A program made the translations under genes and the position numbers. A stretch of DNA of 31,542 nt from a virus. Lineage: Duplodnaviria > Heunggongvirae > Uroviricota > Caudoviricetes. The DNA lies in the IMG/VR virus record IMGVR_UViG_2711768060_000013, positions 1 to 31,542 of that record. The stretch is one strand, 5' to 3'. Numbering within the stretch: the stretch's first letter is position 1; the number at the start of each line of letters is the position of its first letter. Positions 7,534-31,542 of the stretch are shown here, one piece after another. Below the pieces are notes generated by a model. It was not told the origin of the DNA. It did not search any database and saw nothing but the letters and a program-made list of their open reading frames with translations.

Positions 7534-8807
7534 CAGTCGGTAATCTCCACAGGTTGCGTTGGCAGTATGAATGACGGATGGCGCAGGCGGTTACGCTGCA
7601 CGATTTCATCCCGTCGGCTTGTGTCACCATGTTCGCGCCATGCCAGCAATGCGGCAGATGTGGTTGTGGTCAGCGTCACCTGCCGGGTTTCCGGCAGACG
7701 GGCGGCACGCTCGCGGGCATCCGTAATCACGGCCTGCCGTAAATCGCGCAGCGTTCGCCACAATGCCCGCTGGTTATTTTCCACCGCCGCCACCGCCTGC
7801 TCATGCAGTTCAGCCGCCAGCGTGTCACCGGCAGATAATGCCGCATCACTGGTATCGAACGTCATCGAGGCCACGGCATTTGCCTGTCCCAGCAGGGTTT
7901 CCAGCACAACCACCTGGCGGAAGTCGTCAATGTTCTTCTGCAGGCTGTCAGACACCGGCTGATAATCCGGTGACAGCCCGATGGCAAAGCCAATTTCGCC
8001 GTCTGCCACGCTGCCTGGCTTCACGGTGATATCTTCCGGCAGTGCGCCGGTGGCAACCTGTCGGGCGCGTTCTCCGGCCCACTGGTTGCGTAATGTCGTG
8101 TAAACCGCCAGTGCTTCGGGTGGTTCCGTCACCAGATCAACCACGCCGTCGATGAACGAGGACAACTCACTGACCAGACGTCCCGGCGTGGCAATAATGG
8201 TTCCGACCATCTCCTTAAAATGGTTCAGCCTGTCCATCCACTGATTCAGTGCTGCCGGTAGCGTGGGCAGGTTAGCCACAAAGTTTTCCATATCGGACAG
8301 AAAGCTGTCGGCCATCTCACCCAGCCCGTCAAGTGCGCCGAACCAGTCGCCACCGTCAATGGCCGCTTTTACCGCATCAATACCCGTCAGCACTTCCTGC
8401 TGCGTGTTATCCGCCGCAGACGGGAACAGGCGCTCGCCTGCCTCAAACACTTCAAAGGTGACATACGCAATGCCGTCTTCCTCCGTGCTGAGGCGATGGG
8501 TGACCTTGCCAACCTGTACGGTCTGTATCCCGAACCACGGGTGAATAAGCTCGCCGGGGCCGGGGGTATTAAGCGCGTCTAAAAGGGCGTTTAAATCAGC
8601 CTGGAAGTTTTTACCTGGCAGCTTTGCGTTAATCTGCTGTTGCCCCGGAACGGCCCCGTTATCATCCGTCCAGGCGGTTTCGCGCCGGGGATACGCACGG
8701 GGAATGGCACGACGGCCACCGGTGCCTTCCGTATCCACCAGAAAGAAGGGGACGCCACGAAACGAGGCGTCGCGCAGCCCGTCCCATTTGCCTTTGCTTG
8801 TTGTCAT
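7533..8807 (-). CDS. N: DNA circularisation protein N-like (Mu gp43)
   Basis: ORF track, 424 aa, N-terminus MTTSKGKWDGLRDASFRGVPFF recognised as this family; immediately follows the tape measure gene. Confidence 0.8.
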   Translation of the reverse strand: MTTSKGKWDGLRDASFRGVPFFLVDTEGTGGRRAIPRAYPRRETAWTDDNGAVPGQQQINAKLPGKNFQADLNALLDALNTPGPGELIHPWFGIQTVQVGKVTHRLSTEEDGIAYVTFEVFEAGERLFPSAADNTQQEVLTGIDAVKAAIDGGDWFGALDGLGEMADSFLSDMENFVANLPTLPAALNQWMDRLNHFKEMVGTIIATPGRLVSELSSFIDGVVDLVTEPPEALAVYTTLRNQWAGERARQVATGALPEDITVKPGSVADGEIGFAIGLSPDYQPVSDSLQKNIDDFRQVVVLETLLGQANAVASMTFDTSDAALSAGDTLAAELHEQAVAAVENNQRALWRTLRDLRQAVITDARERAARLPETRQVTLTTTTSAALLAWREHGDTSRRDEIVQRNRLRHPSFILPTQPVEITD

Positions 8808-22137: not shown

Positions 22138-22431
22138 TCAGTCCCTCGCACGGGGTTTTTTAACGCCCGGAACGCTGGACAGGCCGTTTGCCACATCCTC
22201 ACCGCTGCCGGTGATTTCAGCCACGTAACAGCCGCCCACATCAGACAGACGAACCAGCCCCTGCTCGCGAAGCCATGCAAGCTGGGTGCGCACCACATCA
22301 CGGGATACCTTATGACCGTAGGCCTGAAGGCAGGTCTGCAACACGGATTCATTCGCGCTGTCGCCACAGTCCAGCAGGGAACGCAGCAACACCAGACGAC
22401 GGTCTTCAGTGAGGATCTCTTTCATCGCCAT
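22138..22431 (-). CDS. hypothetical protein (97 aa), possible winged-helix DNA-binding protein
   Basis: ORF track; TAATG coupling to the upstream gene. Confidence 0.5.
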   Translation of the reverse strand: MAMKEILTEDRRLVLLRSLLDCGDSANESVLQTCLQAYGHKVSRDVVRTQLAWLREQGLVRLSDVGGCYVAEITGSGEDVANGLSSVPGVKKPRARD

Positions 22432-22736
22432 TAATTTTTTTCCTTTAACTCATTCTCTAATAACAAATCGCTGATGCGGGATACCTGGCGGATGGATGGC
22501 CCCAGTTCCTTGATTTCTCCCCTCAGGTTGCTGATATCCAGTTGCAGGCGGTGGAACTCATCACGATCAGGTAGCTGATGCACCTGGCTTTCCATCACCG
22601 ATACACGGGAACGCAACAAATCAAACTCTTCGCGTTTGACGTAGGTCTTCGCCAGAATCAACTGAAGCAGGTTTATTCCTGTCATCAGCAATGCCCACAG
22701 AATGGGCCAGTTGGCTCTGATCATTTCCCAGGACAC
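22431..22736 (-). CDS. membrane-anchored coiled-coil protein (N-terminal TM helix, DUF2730-like)
   Basis: ORF track, 101 aa, hydrophobic N-terminus followed by a heptad-like region. Confidence 0.55.
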   Translation of the reverse strand: MSWEMIRANWPILWALLMTGINLLQLILAKTYVKREEFDLLRSRVSVMESQVHQLPDRDEFHRLQLDISNLRGEIKELGPSIRQVSRISDLLLENELKEKN

Positions 22737-22948
22737 GATTTCCTCCTGTGTTCCCGTATCTGCTGACAGTCAATACAGGTCACCACATCCGGCAGCGCCG
22801 CAAGGCGCTGTGCCGGAATAACGTTCCCGCAGTCATTGCAGAAGCCCCGGCTGTGGGGCGCTTCTTTTGTCCGCGTCTGCCAGGCTTTAACGACGCTCTG
22901 ACGTTCGTTCAGAACCACTTCACTGATGCGGTCGATTTCGTCGGTCAT
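22721..22948 (-). CDS. TraR/DksA-family C4 zinc-finger protein
   Basis: ORF track, 75 aa, CxxC-(N17)-CxxC motif (CNDCG...CIDCQ). Confidence 0.7.
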   Translation of the reverse strand: MTDEIDRISEVVLNERQSVVKAWQTRTKEAPHSRGFCNDCGNVIPAQRLAALPDVVTCIDCQQIREHRRKSCPGK

Positions 22949-23553
22949 TTCGGCCCCGCAGACATTTTGTGACGGCTTGATTTGCTGTAACGGGCAAAAC
23001 CGTCAAGGGTTCTTACGCCGAGATAGCCCAGCGCCGGGGTAAGCAACATCAGCGTGATATCCCAGTCCGGTGACGGCATATGCAGCGAGATACCTTTGGC
23101 ACCGGCAATGGCTCCGGCAATCTGACCGCAGGAGAGCAACAGCACATAGGCCAGACTGCTGTAACAGGAAAGGCGGGCCAGCAGCGGGCGCGTCTGGCGC
23201 ACATAGCTGTCCGTGGCGTTGTCACCATTGCGGATGGTTTCCTGCTGTTCGTGGTGTGCGGCCTGCTGGTCAGCCAGCACCAGCTTCTGCCGTTCCACCT
23301 CCAGCTGTTGCAGCTGAATTTTCAGAGTTTCCAGCTGCATCAGTTGCTCCGGTGACAACATCACCAGCTTTTGTTCCAGAATGCGTTGCTGTTCAGCCAC
23401 CGGCAGGCTTTCCCGGACGCTTTCCACCATACCGGCCACCGAGTCAGCGGCGGCAGATGTGCTACCACCAAACCAGCGCCCGACGGAACGAATCAGCCCC
23501 GGCCCGGCTTTCAGCAGAACAGAGGCGATGCCTGAAAGGGTTAACGGATCCAC
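22945..23553 (-). CDS. putative holin-like membrane protein (N-terminal coiled coil, C-terminal TM segments)
   Basis: ORF track frame; start moved to GTG at 23551-23553 with a perfect GGAGG 7 nt upstream, which removes the 162-nt overlap with the upstream gene. Confidence 0.5.
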   Translation of the reverse strand: MDPLTLSGIASVLLKAGPGLIRSVGRWFGGSTSAAADSVAGMVESVRESLPVAEQQRILEQKLVMLSPEQLMQLETLKIQLQQLEVERQKLVLADQQAAHHEQQETIRNGDNATDSYVRQTRPLLARLSCYSSLAYVLLLSCGQIAGAIAGAKGISLHMPSPDWDITLMLLTPALGYLGVRTLDGFARYSKSSRHKMSAGPK

Positions 23554-23966
23554 GGGAAACCTCCATACAGATAACGCTGAAAACAGAGCAGACCGCCGCA
23601 ACTGCCACCACACAGCCAGAACACCGGATGCACCGGTGACATCATCATCAGCGTGCTGAAGACGCAGCAGAAATATCCCAGCGCCCAGACCACCCATGAC
23701 CACACGATGATGTGGCGACCAAAAGCCCGGTAACGGACCTCAGGCAGCAGGCGAAATGGCACATTCCCGAGGCTTGCGCTGTATGAAAACAACACCACCC
23801 CGGCAAAGGACAACAACATCAACACGAACGATCGCCAGCCACATAACATGCTGATGATGAACATGCAGAGTGTCAGTCCGGCCAGTGGCCATGGCGTTCT
23901 CATCAGTCGGGAACAAATCAGCCAGTCACACAGTTTTAAAATTTTGTTCATTACCTTTTTCCACAT
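23541..23966 (-). CDS. multi-pass membrane protein, Cys-rich; possible lysis-associated protein
   Basis: ORF track frame; start moved to ATG at 23964-23966 (MWKKVMNKIL...); hydrophobic segments throughout. Confidence 0.45.
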   Translation of the reverse strand: MWKKVMNKILKLCDWLICSRLMRTPWPLAGLTLCMFIISMLCGWRSFVLMLLSFAGVVLFSYSASLGNVPFRLLPEVRYRAFGRHIIVWSWVVWALGYFCCVFSTLMMMSPVHPVFWLCGGSCGGLLCFQRYLYGGFPWIR

Positions 23967-24177
23967 TGAATTTTTCCCTGTACTTCTGGCACTGCCAGAA
24001 AATGTCCCGTGTATCCACGGAGTTCCAGCCACGCATGTAGTAGCTGGCGTGTGTGCCGTCATGGCCGGTGTAGTCCACCGGTTTCGGGGGCGGACCTCCG
24101 GCCATGCGGTGTAAAACCTCCTGGCGCAGGCGGTCACGCCGCCCGGCTTTCAGTGAGGCGTCCCAGCCTTTGCCCAT
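23926..24177 (-). CDS. hypothetical protein (83 aa) immediately after the endolysin
   Basis: ORF track; ATG directly downstream of a G8 tract; in the -1 frame relative to the endolysin. Confidence 0.45.
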   Translation of the reverse strand: MGKGWDASLKAGRRDRLRQEVLHRMAGGPPPKPVDYTGHDGTHASYYMRGWNSVDTRDIFWQCQKYREKFNVEKGNEQNFKTV

Positions 24178-24767
24178 ATCCCCCCCCGCGTGGTGGACGG
24201 CGCGTTGTCGATAATTTCCAGACAGGCGTCGGTCAGTTTTTCCATGCGGTTAAACCAGCCGTTCAGGTATTTACCCTGGGCGGGTTTTGACTTGATGATG
24301 TCGGCATAAAAGCGGGAACGACGGACAATGCAGCGGGTCAGCAACCAGTCCGGGGTGGACAGGCTCACGGCCTTACGGGTACACGGGCCGATGATGCCGT
24401 CAGCATCCACATCAGCGGCTTCCTGCAAAATTCTGATGGCTTTTTTAACGCCATGCTGAACCGCCGCATCGAACACAAACATCGCCACGCCATCAGGCCA
24501 CTGGTCACATCCGGCAGGCAGCCAGTAATCACGCAGGTAAATCTGTGCGGCCTGTTCGCGGGTTAAATCTTTGATGCGGGTATCCGGTTTACCGTCACCG
24601 TTGACATCGGTTTTGCCGTCAATCACACCGTCGCGGCGGTCAGAAATGCCGTATTTGGTTTCGCCGCCACGGTCAGTGGGGTCATTGACATAGACGCCTT
24701 CGATATCAGGACGCAGAATGAAATTCAGCGCATGTTCAAAGGCCGGGGAGAATTTTTGATTTTCCAT
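24150..24767 (-). CDS. endolysin, GH108-type N-terminal domain plus PG_binding_3-like domain; no SAR/TM segment
   Basis: ORF track, 205 aa; EGVYVNDPTDRGGETKYGI motif typical of GH108; AGGTG 6 nt upstream of the ATG. Confidence 0.8.
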   Translation of the reverse strand: MENQKFSPAFEHALNFILRPDIEGVYVNDPTDRGGETKYGISDRRDGVIDGKTDVNGDGKPDTRIKDLTREQAAQIYLRDYWLPAGCDQWPDGVAMFVFDAAVQHGVKKAIRILQEAADVDADGIIGPCTRKAVSLSTPDWLLTRCIVRRSRFYADIIKSKPAQGKYLNGWFNRMEKLTDACLEIIDNAPSTTRGGIWAKAGTPH

Positions 24768-24822
24768 AAAAGCACCTGTGAAGCAGATTTAAACGTGGTC
24801 TGCTTCATGGTGCCGGAGGCAT

Positions 24823-24848
24823 AAAAAAAGCCGGATTTACCGGCTTCA
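24823..24848 (-). terminator. intrinsic terminator 8 nt downstream of the mor stop (AAGCCGG-TAAAT-CCGGCTT then T7 on the minus strand); same element as 17047-17072
   Basis: hairpin and U-run read directly from sequence. Confidence 0.6.
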
Positions 24849-24852
24849 TTGA

Positions 24853-25302
24853 TTAAAGGCGTCGTGGCGGACGACGAACGGGGTGAGGCAGGTTCGGGGA
24901 GGGGTAAAACAAATCCGGCTGGTATTTATTACGCTCCAGACGTCGCATCCGTTTGATGGCCTTGTAGACGGTTTTATACGTCACTCCGTAACGCTGAACC
25001 AGTTCAGGAATATTATGGCCGTTAAAATCACGCCAGATACGCATATCCCGGACAAGATTCTCCAGAATATTCCCCCTCGGAACATAAACCTGCATCCCGC
25101 CGATATGGCGACAAATCGCCACAACCAGCTCAAGGGAATGAACAGGGTCTGCGCCAATCCGGGCCAGCTCTTTACGCAGCAGTGCGTTCAGTTCAGAAAG
25201 TAACGCCGGATAAGCGGTGTTTTCCTGGTAATCATGAAGATATTCCAGAACGCTGTCGTCCCGGAGGTCTTCGAATAAATCCTGCTCTTTCATCTGTTTC
25301 AT
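24853..25302 (-). CDS. mor: Mor/C-family transcriptional activator (Mor-like, 149 aa)
   Basis: ORF track; sequence recognised as Mor-like (DLF.DL.DD..L..L......PALL.EL..LLR.EL...G.DP.HSLE.VVAIC.H.GG.QVY.PRG...L.RD.RIW.DFNG.N..EL...YGVT..TVYKAI.RMRRL); follows gemA. Confidence 0.85.
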   Translation of the reverse strand: MKQMKEQDLFEDLRDDSVLEYLHDYQENTAYPALLSELNALLRKELARIGADPVHSLELVVAICRHIGGMQVYVPRGNILENLVRDMRIWRDFNGHNIPELVQRYGVTYKTVYKAIKRMRRLERNKYQPDLFYPSPNLPHPVRRPPRRL

Positions 25303-25847
25303 ACAGCAATTCTCCCGCTGTTTCGTGCGCGGGCATACGCACTGGTCAGTGCATCATAGCCGCGCAGTTCCCGCCCGGATGGGCTTACAGGTAAAGGCAC
25401 ACCATGTCGGGCAAAGGCTTCACGGATGCAGCGCATGTGCCACTGTTTGAGCGTTTCGAGCACAACCTGCAACGATTCCCCGTGACACCAGGCCAGTGTG
25501 GAAACACCCTGACCGCCATTACGTCTGGCCGTCAGGCGCTCAACGTATTTGTCCAGCGCGGCGTCGCTGATATCGGAAACGAAACCATCAAGGAACATCT
25601 GCTGCCAGATTTTGTAAATCTTCTCGCGTGGTGTGACATGCCCCTTAAAGCGACGGCGGGGATGTTTTTTCTGCTTCTTAAAACCGCGCTCTTTCATGGC
25701 ATCGAGCACACGTTCCAGTTGTGCAACGGACAGCTCGCGGCAACTGGTCTTGCCCGTGCACTGCACCAGAAAGGCGCGGTAAGTGTCATCGTCGAGTTGT
25801 AGATCACGACGAGCGACATGAATTAATTTAATAAGCGATGCGCGCAT
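25299..25847 (-). CDS. gemA: GemA-like protein (Mu gp16 family, DUF1018)
   Basis: ORF track; start moved to ATG at 25845-25847 (MRASLIKLIHVARR...) with GGAGA 8 nt upstream; recognised family. Confidence 0.8.
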   Translation of the reverse strand: MRASLIKLIHVARRDLQLDDDTYRAFLVQCTGKTSCRELSVAQLERVLDAMKERGFKKQKKHPRRRFKGHVTPREKIYKIWQQMFLDGFVSDISDAALDKYVERLTARRNGGQGVSTLAWCHGESLQVVLETLKQWHMRCIREAFARHGVPLPVSPSGRELRGYDALTSAYARARNSGRIAV

Positions 25848-25913
25848 GATGCGTATCTCCATTAAAGCGGTGTTGCAGCACCGCCATTACGTTAAACAAA
25901 AGGAATTACTGAA

Positions 25914-26156: not shown

Positions 26157-26448
26157 ACAAACAACGCTCATAATCAGCCGTTCTTATAATGGCTAAACCG
26201 TCTACACCAAGCTCACGGCGAACTAATTCGTCATGGGCTTTTTTTTCAAGAAACACAAATTCAGTTTGTAATAATGACAACTCTCGTTTGATAACACTCA
26301 TAATTTCTCCCACCCCCCATTGCTCCTCGATTGCTTTGAACACAATCTCACGCATTCTTAGGGGGACACCCTTTTGCTGACAAAAATCGTCAAATGTCAT
26401 GCCGAAATAATATTCATGATTTTTTTTATTTGTTGTCGTCTTACTCAT
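26083..26448 (-). CDS. hypothetical early protein (121 aa)
   Basis: ORF track; ATGAGTAA start/stop overlap with the upstream gene. Confidence 0.55.
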   Translation of the reverse strand: MSKTTTNKKNHEYYFGMTFDDFCQQKGVPLRMREIVFKAIEEQWGVGEIMSVIKRELSLLQTEFVFLEKKAHDELVRRELGVDGLAIIRTADYERCLFISTVLNPKVSEKENLYSPQQESQ

Positions 26449-29544: not shown

Positions 29545-31542
29545 TTAAATGGCTTTTTTACGTCTGTTCTGTTCCAGAATATCCAGCGAATGATTCAGAT
29601 ATTCATCACGATCAGTTTCATATTCATCATCGGGTTCCTGGTATTTCACCTGCACCGTGTTACCGGAAGGCCGGAAAATACCAACAACCCTTGATTCTGG
29701 CGCTGCTGGTTCGGCTATCTGCGGCAGCAGTTCAGCAACTTCCAGCGCGTCCATTTGCTTCTGCGCCTTAATGGCTGCTTTAGTTGCAGATTTCAGTTGT
29801 TTCTGGCGGCGGCGATATTCGCGGCCTGCCGCAGCATCATTAAATGCAACAGGTGCCAGACATTCCGCTTCACAGATAAACCGACCGTCCAGGGTGTAAC
29901 AATAAACCGTGCTGTGTAACTGCTGTGGATCAAACCTGACCACAACTTTTTTCACATTGGCATTCATTAACGCCATGTTGTAATAAACGTTTTTCGCGCC
30001 TTTAAGGGAGCCGCCAACTTTAAGCGTAAACTCGCCTTTGCGTGAAACGTTCACCGCCTCGGCAGGCAGTAACAGCATCCGTTTTTGTTCTTCGGTTGGC
30101 TTACGCACAATCGTTCTGGCGTATTCACGCTCGAAAACATCATCAAACGAGAGTTTGCCCCCGCACATTTCTGTTTCACGGCCTGTTCTGGCATTGAACA
30201 TCGCCACACCTTCGGCAAGGGTTTTCAGAAACAGCTCTGCATCAACAGCGCGGTCGCCATAGTTATCAGGTTTTGCCTGCGGATTTGGCCCCGTATATGC
30301 ACCAGCCAGTGCCGGATGCTTATCAACGTATTCCTCAAGCCCACCAACACCGAAAGCACGTTCAACAGGTTTTGCCTGGCCCCAGCCTTTACCGGCAACA
30401 ACGCTTGTCCAGTGCATTTTCGCGCCCATCAGTAAAAACAGCCCTTTTGGATCGTCCTCTTTTACCTTAAAGCGGTAGCGATTGGGCGCGCCTCCCGTCA
30501 GCCATTTATTCGCAGCACCACGGGTGTTATCAATGGTGATGTGAAAATCCTCCGGGATACCGTAGCGAGTCACAACATCCATGAACGAGAGGCGAATTGA
30601 ATCGATGTTCTCACTGACATCGCAGCGCCAGCCCAAAATTTTTCGGGTTTTCACATCCTGCCAGAACCATGTTTTCGGGCGGATCACATCACCGTTAAAC
30701 CAGCGTACAAAGACGTTATGCAGATAACCGTCGCCGTTGATCCACTGCATGGCGTCCAGGTGTTCCACAGTTCGCTGCTGTGCCGGTATCAGATGCATCA
30801 GAGCATGTTCACCTTCACGGCAGGCAACAACCATTGCCTCGTCCAGTTGCTGAATCCGGCGAAAGGCCGTGGCACGGGAGGGAATACTCCAGCCATGCTC
30901 GCGGGCTGCCAGTTCCAGACGCTCATAACATTTGCGAAAGGCGGGTTTTTCCGGTCGCAGATAATCTGCAATCAGAAACTGCCAGGCATCCTCGTCAAAT
31001 TCACTTTTGTGAATGTTGCGACGGGATGCACCACGTCCATCAACAAGCGCAGCCGCCCAGTCAGGCTTCGCAAACTTCTGTACCTGGTAATATTTGTCTC
31101 GCAAAGTGGATGCGCTGACCTGGTAATGTCCTGCAACGGTCGCAAATGCCGTTTTTGTTGAAATCCCCTGGTTCAGCATTTCGTCTGCGGCCTGAACCGC
31201 AGGCAACCATTTTTCAGCAAGTTTGCGCTGGGAATCGCTGGCTTTATCCCATTTGCTCCACAGTGCCTCGCGATCGTAATCGTGGGCTTCCAGCGTGGGG
31301 CGGGCGATTTCAAAATACCCCTGGCTTGTTTCTATTTGCTCAGATTTTAATAACAACTCAGCACGTGCTGCCGCTGGTAGAACTGATATATGAAATTCCA
31401 AAGCCTTTGAACCCGTACGCTTGCGACGTAGTTCTGGATGATTGGCTGCAAGCTTTTCAAGATTGCGGCGAATACTCACCTCATGTTTAGGAAAGCATGA
31501 CATTCCTACGCATTCTTGCGCTGTTACCCAATGGGTTAACAT
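29545..31542 (-). CDS. A: DDE transposase A (MuA), 665 codons; ATG at 31540-31542 is at the window edge so the true start may lie beyond the window
   Basis: ORF track; from about residue 77 onward the sequence is recognised as essentially MuA; the first ~75 residues differ from my recollection of Mu. Confidence 0.95.

Follow-up and report, generated by a model that had tools for sequence, protein, structure and literature searches.

An eight-G tract at the endolysin–gp18 junction of a Mu-like prophage: a probable lineage-specific stop-loss form of a Shine-Dalgarno/stop/start boundary

Endolysin, gp18-like ORF and G8 tract

The DNA analysed here, a stretch of 31,542 nucleotides that we call the window, is a Mu-like prophage, and related prophages with 93–97% identity are present in E. 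coli genomes. The genes of the region under study all lie on the minus strand and code, from upstream to downstream, for GemA/gp16 (25299–25862), Mor (24853–25302), an endolysin (24150–24767), a gp18-like protein (23926–24177), a gp19-like membrane protein (23541–23951), a 202-aa ORF product (22945–23553), TraR/DksA (22721–22948), and a DUF2730 protein (22431–22736). At the far end of the window, a 665-aa ORF (29545–31542, minus strand), probably a MuA-type transposase, has its ATG in the last bases, and the terminal stretch of about 205 nt (31337–31542) fell outside the megablast matches to E. coli relatives.

The 205-aa endolysin combines GH108 and PG_binding_3 domains, both of which passed the Pfam gathering scores (PF05838: E = 2.4e-24, 86.1 bits, cut-off 21.2; PF09374: E = 2.7e-16, 59.9 bits, cut-off 24.6), matches phrog_315 (endolysin), and is identical to WP_053289383.1, which occurs on 3 contigs. 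The 83-aa ORF that follows it starts with its own ATG (24175–24177) and belongs to the Phage_Mu_gp18 family (PF26867) and to phrog_2121 (E = 2.3e-42). Our local Pfam copy is without the PF26867 model and left this ORF unmatched; the family was assigned through the precomputed Pfam match of the identical 83-aa product (E ≤ 1e-5) and through tblastn against phage Mu, where Mup18 gave 69% identity over 72 aa (E = 3e-27). The MGKGW start is conserved in nearly all gp18 homologues, whose lengths range from 51 to 90 aa. It was also observed that the protein collection places the 83-aa product (P0021) in one 90%-identity cluster of 520 members with the unrelated endolysin, and this joint clustering may point to a fusion sequence that bridges the two.

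Comparison with phage Mu places both genes in a recognizable operon. In the mor–endolysin intergenic gap (24768–24852), alignment with Mu and a terminator-like match revealed a hairpin followed by a T-run (24827–24847, minus strand), at the start of the operon that contains both genes; its sequence, GAAGCCGGTAAATCCGGCTTTTTTT, is 1 nt different from the dyad in the mor–gp18 (Pm) gap of Mu. PMC4390567 locates the Mor-dependent middle promoter Pm in that gap together with the dyad. The near-identical dyad 5' of the endolysin gene suggests that the endolysin and gp18-like genes head one operon, and that the GH108 endolysin would be the first gene of a Mor-dependent operon here. The arrangement resembles the Mu middle operon (Pm–gp18–gp19–gp20–C) in its mor-proximal dyad and in the succession of a gp18 homologue and a gp19-like membrane protein, the latter being in our case a 136-aa ORF (phrog_12596, also supported by gene calls in relatives) that follows as the next operon gene and shares 26 nt with the gp18-like ORF. 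It differs from Mu in that a GH108 endolysin gene is placed between the Pm-like element and gp18, in that a TraR/DksA gene occupies the place of Mu C, and in that the endolysin of Mu, gp22, is of another family and is a late gene (PMC9239132). In Mu, gp18 is a middle gene (PMC9239132) that comes first after the mor gap, with a GGGGA Shine-Dalgarno (SD) sequence and no endolysin gene upstream, indicating that the gp18 family occurs as an autonomous gene.

The tract under study lies at the boundary between the endolysin and gp18-like genes (24180–24187, minus strand). The plus strand reads CCCCCCCC at this position, and since the genes of the region are all on the minus strand, its C8 is a G8 on the coding strand, where it forms part of the endolysin Arg-Gly-Gly codons and, judging by the allele survey and the anti-SD duplexes described below, serves as the SD element of the gp18-like ORF. 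The endolysin gene ends in ACG CGG GGG GGG ATA TGG GCA AAG GCT GGG ACG CCT CAC TGA (...TTRGGIWAKAGTPH*), with the Arg-Gly-Gly from the tract 10–12 residues before the C-terminus, and the TGA in present use (24150–24152, minus strand) is located 25 nt 3' of the gp18-like ATG, giving a gene overlap of 28 nt. The ATG of the 83-aa ORF is 2 nt past the G8 and in the −1 frame relative to the endolysin, as determined by hand and from simulated tract lengths, and this frame is open for 24 codons 5' of the ATG (*PHGKTDRRLSGNYRQRAVHHAGGD-MGKGW). A preliminary description of the locus had reported Arg-Gly-Gly codons near the endolysin C-terminus, an ATG just past the tract in the −1 frame, and about 24 open codons ahead of it, all of which were confirmed.

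Quantification of homopolymers of at least 8 nt in the window revealed 5, compared to 3.0 expected under a first-order Markov model; for G/C runs of at least 8 nt the numbers were 1 and 1.08 (probability of at least one: 0.65), indicating that the length of the G8 by itself is not improbable in 31.5 kb. It is also the sole G/C run of at least 7 nt, where 4.1 are expected. The four other 8-nt homopolymers consist of A or T (533–540, 9882–9889, 26239–26246, and 26420–26427), and the one at 9882–9889 falls within a 618-aa ORF (8807–10663, minus strand).

The junction in related prophages and the origin of the G8 allele

We surveyed the endolysin–gp18 junction with regular expressions in 33 close loci, whose sources were E. 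coli genomes, IMG/VR, metagenomes, and assemblies in which the identical 83-aa ORF is present. In 30 of them the junction reads ACG CGG GGG TGA T ATG, that is, a G5 run, the endolysin stop codon, one nucleotide, and the gp18 start codon. One locus (L012) carries a G7 run produced by a T-to-G change only, and its endolysin ends in ...TRGGYG* at a close-by TAA. G8 was present in only two loci (L024 and L031), both with 100% identity to the window across the 901 nt compared. A widened pattern scan of viral contigs added a single locus, L048, with a GGGGA-TGA junction. The window therefore differs from the common junction at two points, a T-to-G substitution and an additional G, and its endolysin is a stop-loss form that is 10 C-terminal residues (GIWAKAGTPH) longer than the 195-aa type. 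The identical 83-aa ORF was found on at least 67 contigs, and in 8 of the 9 places shown it is preceded by a 198-aa endolysin whose gene stops 1 nt before the ATG.

A more distant set of 12 loci (Raoultella, Pluralibacter, Trabulsiella, Klebsiella, Kluyvera, Serratia, and Brenneria), obtained by protein-guided retrieval, had the endolysin stop codon (TGA or TAA) 1–4 nt before the gp18 ATG, with GGAG 5–7 nt upstream in most, and no homopolymer at the junction in any of the 12. The frame offset between endolysin and gp18 was +1 in the close relatives and either 1 or 2 in the distant loci. Homologues with two separate ORFs and without a homopolymer, which the preliminary description had regarded as evidence against a tract that joins the two genes, were thus what we found in 30 of the 33 close loci, in L048, and in the 12 distant loci. 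Three other searches gave no match: the junction region against a phage collection by megablast, the exact junction pattern across genome contigs with one genome per species, and an 86-nt junction query against E. coli genomes, this query being probably too short or masked. In L002 (E. coli UMNF18) the gp18-like gene (2224–2442) is annotated as a pseudogene without its C-terminus, and the simulated frame continues into the gp19-like membrane ORF.

Among relatives with a standard junction, L025 is the nearest; it is 99.1% identical to the window over 3.25 kb, and the differences between the two are clustered in a patch at 24181–24338 (minus strand), with none in 23243–24180 or in 24339–25490. 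The patch occupies the 3' part of the endolysin gene and contains a 9-nt indel (NAPSTT vs. TPLGIMSAT). Since the differences stop at the tract, the tract marks the downstream end of a short mosaic patch with 195-aa-type endolysin sequence, and on this distribution the T-to-GG change probably arose with, or at the end of, the recombination event that made the patch.

Long G/C runs are error-prone on several sequencing platforms, and the G8 allele is rare (3 contigs, compared to at least 67 with the identical downstream ORF), so it could be asked whether the G8 is a sequencing or assembly error for the common G5-TGA junction or a G7, an alternative that the preliminary description had also raised. 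Against this, the same G8 is present in L024, an independent Logan assembly of run ERR4368544 with 1 mismatch to the window in 6618 nt, and also in L031 (GCA_001269325.1), which is identical to the window over 3252 nt. The difference from the relatives is moreover a T-to-G substitution together with an insertion and not a pure change in length, and both the endolysin and the 83-aa ORFs are intact. The related G7 stop-loss allele, found on 16 contigs, indicates that the T-to-G change exists in nature. Since G8 was recovered independently, requires a substitution as well as an indel, and leaves both ORFs intact, we consider an error at this site highly unlikely.

Fusion, frameshifting and phase variation

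To describe what changes in tract length would do, we simulated tracts from G5 to G11. G9 produced a 280-aa and G6 a 279-aa in-frame fusion of the endolysin and gp18-like ORF, the remaining lengths altered only the endolysin tail (204–211 aa), and neither ORF was truncated at any length. On the common G5-TGA allele (L001/L025 type), loss of one G (G4) would skip the stop codon and yield a 282-aa in-frame fusion. Based on lengths and Pfam content, no tract-type fusion was present among the 120 endolysin homologue clusters listed (all 181–198 aa) or among 20 gp18 clusters (all 51–90 aa). Likewise, 17 simulated tract variants, including all predicted fusions, had no exact match in a collection of 15 billion proteins; the look-ups covered G5, G6, G7, G9, G10, and G11 on the window background, the G4 fusion on four common backgrounds, and G5, G6, G8, G9, G10, and a TGA-restored form on the G7 background. 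The G7 allele (201-aa endolysin) is unchanged on its 16 contigs and G8 has one length on all 3 contigs of the window lineage, and together with the look-ups this gives no sign of tract-length variation among isolates, although with 3 contigs the power for G8 is low and rare length variants inside populations may exist.

The sole sequence with parts of both proteins, P0020 (E. coli HNO00_08180), is a 90-aa chimera that derives from a deletion instead of a fusion through the tract. In it, endolysin residues 1–63 continue in frame, by way of a D-T-R common to both proteins, into the C-terminal 27 residues of the gp18-like ORF. The counterpart in the window is 24579–24767 joined to 23926–24009, and it looks as if a near-identical prophage lost DNA between short repeats.

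The geometry of the junction would allow a minor 280-aa endolysin–gp18 fusion to be made by programmed −1 ribosomal frameshifting or by transcriptional slippage on G_GGG_GGG: read in the endolysin frame, CG[G GGG GGG] conforms formally to X_XXZ_ZZN, and the −1 frame runs open into the gp18 ORF. In these two respects, a homopolymeric heptamer that can re-pair in −1 and an open −1 frame, the tract resembles the programmed sites of dnaX (A_AAA_AAG preceded by an SD and followed by a hairpin) and of IS911/IS3; it differs from them in its poor G-only motif, in having neither stimulatory structure nor conservation, and in that no fusion product is known. The motif is missing in 31 close and 12 distant loci, the frame relation is not conserved, and the 120 plus 20 clusters held no fused homologues. 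A 111-nt segment around the tract (24090–24200, minus strand) folds no better than its shuffles (z = 0.12), and the sole local (centroid) hairpin begins about 20 nt past the tract, outside the 5–9 nt at which a stimulatory structure is expected. Known transcriptional slippage sites in bacteria are mainly A/T runs, which counts against slippage at G8. As to the ribosome, G-only slippery motifs are reported to be weak in E. coli, where GGN codons are weaker −1 shifters than AAN or UUN (Sharma et al., PMC4066793); the lowest value reported was the 0.018% of G_GG.G_GG.U in the absence of a stimulator, and G-rich motifs are able to mimic SD sequences (PMC4066793). Taken together, lack of conservation, lack of fused homologues, a weak motif, and lack of structure make programmed frameshifting very unlikely, with next to no probability left for it in our estimate. 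A prfB-type +1 frameshift at the GGG-UGA of the common allele was likewise considered and rejected, as the searches gave no fusion and distant relatives do not share the junction.

The same two products could in principle be toggled at the DNA level, if slippage at a phase-variable (contingency) homopolymer switched lysogens from making endolysin and gp18 separately to making them fused, or back. The existence of both G7 and G8 alleles implies at least one length change at the site, and the genes would become fused at G9 or G6; a G8 run at a gene boundary is also a feature shared with the poly-G contingency loci of Neisseria, Haemophilus, and Campylobacter. Unlike those loci, the tract displays no length polymorphism among isolates (one length in all three G8 contigs, one in all 16 G7 contigs, and none of the G5, G6, G7, G9, G10, or G11 variants on either background in the collection), has no on/off outcome, and occurs in a host not known to use the mechanism; G8 phase variation is not known from E. 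coli with intact mismatch repair. G7 is found on the 198-aa type of endolysin and G8 on the 195-aa type, indicating that the two are not switching states of one clone, and on/off logic is lacking, since neither gene is inactivated at any length. Phase variation is therefore extremely improbable in our judgment. We assign an equally slight chance to the broader possibility that the G8 serves as a low-frequency decoding or mutational switch (a −1 slip or G8-to-G9) in the E. coli prophage lineage of the window; if it did, part of the cytoplasmic endolysin would become tethered to the gp18 module, with altered lysis or middle-gene function as a consequence. The proposal of the preliminary description that tract change or slippage could fuse the two proteins thus stands as geometry, in that a net gain of one G (G9), a net loss of two (G6), or a −1 slip joins the ORFs, while the searches for fusions and length variants gave no sign of its use.

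Ribosome binding and the stop-loss reading

We calculated the duplexes formed by the junction alleles with the 3' end of 16S rRNA, and all three G-run alleles paired strongly with the anti-SD sequence (G8: −10.6 kcal/mol; G7: −10.1 kcal/mol; G5TGA: −9.9 kcal/mol) when compared to the GGAG relatives (about −6 kcal/mol) and to Mu gp18 (GGGGA; −5.7 kcal/mol). This strength of pairing suggests that the G run is the ribosome-binding site of gp18, and its position at the expected SD site of gp18 implies that the endolysin's final Arg-Gly or Arg-Ser codons double as the SD. In the G8 allele the spacing between SD and ATG is 2 nt in the best duplex, which is short, or 5 nt if earlier G residues pair.

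The relatives have the layout of translationally coupled phage junctions in which the SD lies inside the upstream gene: stop and start codons are adjacent (1–4 nt gap), and the last upstream codons contain an SD-like G run or GGAG. The window shares with such junctions that its two genes belong to one operon 3' of a Mu Pm-like element. It departs from them in that its lineage lost the stop codon, with termination now 25 nt past the downstream start and a 28-nt overlap in place of a 1-nt gap. With the stop this far past the ATG, coupling may be weaker in the window, the SD and ATG being intact.

We conclude that the G8 is very probably a lineage-specific stop-loss form of an ordinary SD/stop/start junction between separately translated endolysin and gp18 genes, a reading that derives from comparison of alleles and predicted pairing. 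According to this scheme, in nearly all relatives the last endolysin codons CGG GGG TGA would present a G run for pairing with the 3' end of 16S rRNA, the TGA would stop the endolysin, and the gp18 ATG would follow one base on, a layout expected for termination–reinitiation coupling. In the window lineage the T of the TGA changed to G and one G was added, probably together with the short recombination patch that finishes there, generating the G8. Upon loss of the stop, the endolysin gained 10 residues up to the next TGA, overlapping the first 9 gp18 codons, and gp18 retained its own SD and ATG, such that two proteins should still be made separately. In line with this scheme, translation of endolysin and gp18 as separate proteins appears probable, translational coupling from endolysin to gp18 presumably operates, and the 10-residue extension of the endolysin is likely to be functionally neutral.

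The junction would accordingly matter little beyond annotation, since what appears to be a frameshift or phase-variation device would be a lineage-specific stop-loss mutation. WP_053289383.1 (205 aa) is best described as a 10-residue-extended allele of the common 195/198-aa endolysin, and the 83-aa ORF should be listed as a separate gene, a Mu gp18 homologue. The position of an endolysin gene at the head of what looks like a Mor-dependent operon, unlike in Mu, may be of interest for work on the timing of lysis in Mu-like phages.

Further along the minus strand, a longer, 252-aa reading of the 202-aa ORF (22945–23703, minus strand) gave a weak, sub-threshold match to GTA_holin_3TM (E = 7e-4, 20.5 bits, cut-off 24.8), and some RefSeq records call the homologue TatA/TatE; the ORF codes for a candidate holin for the cytoplasmic endolysin.
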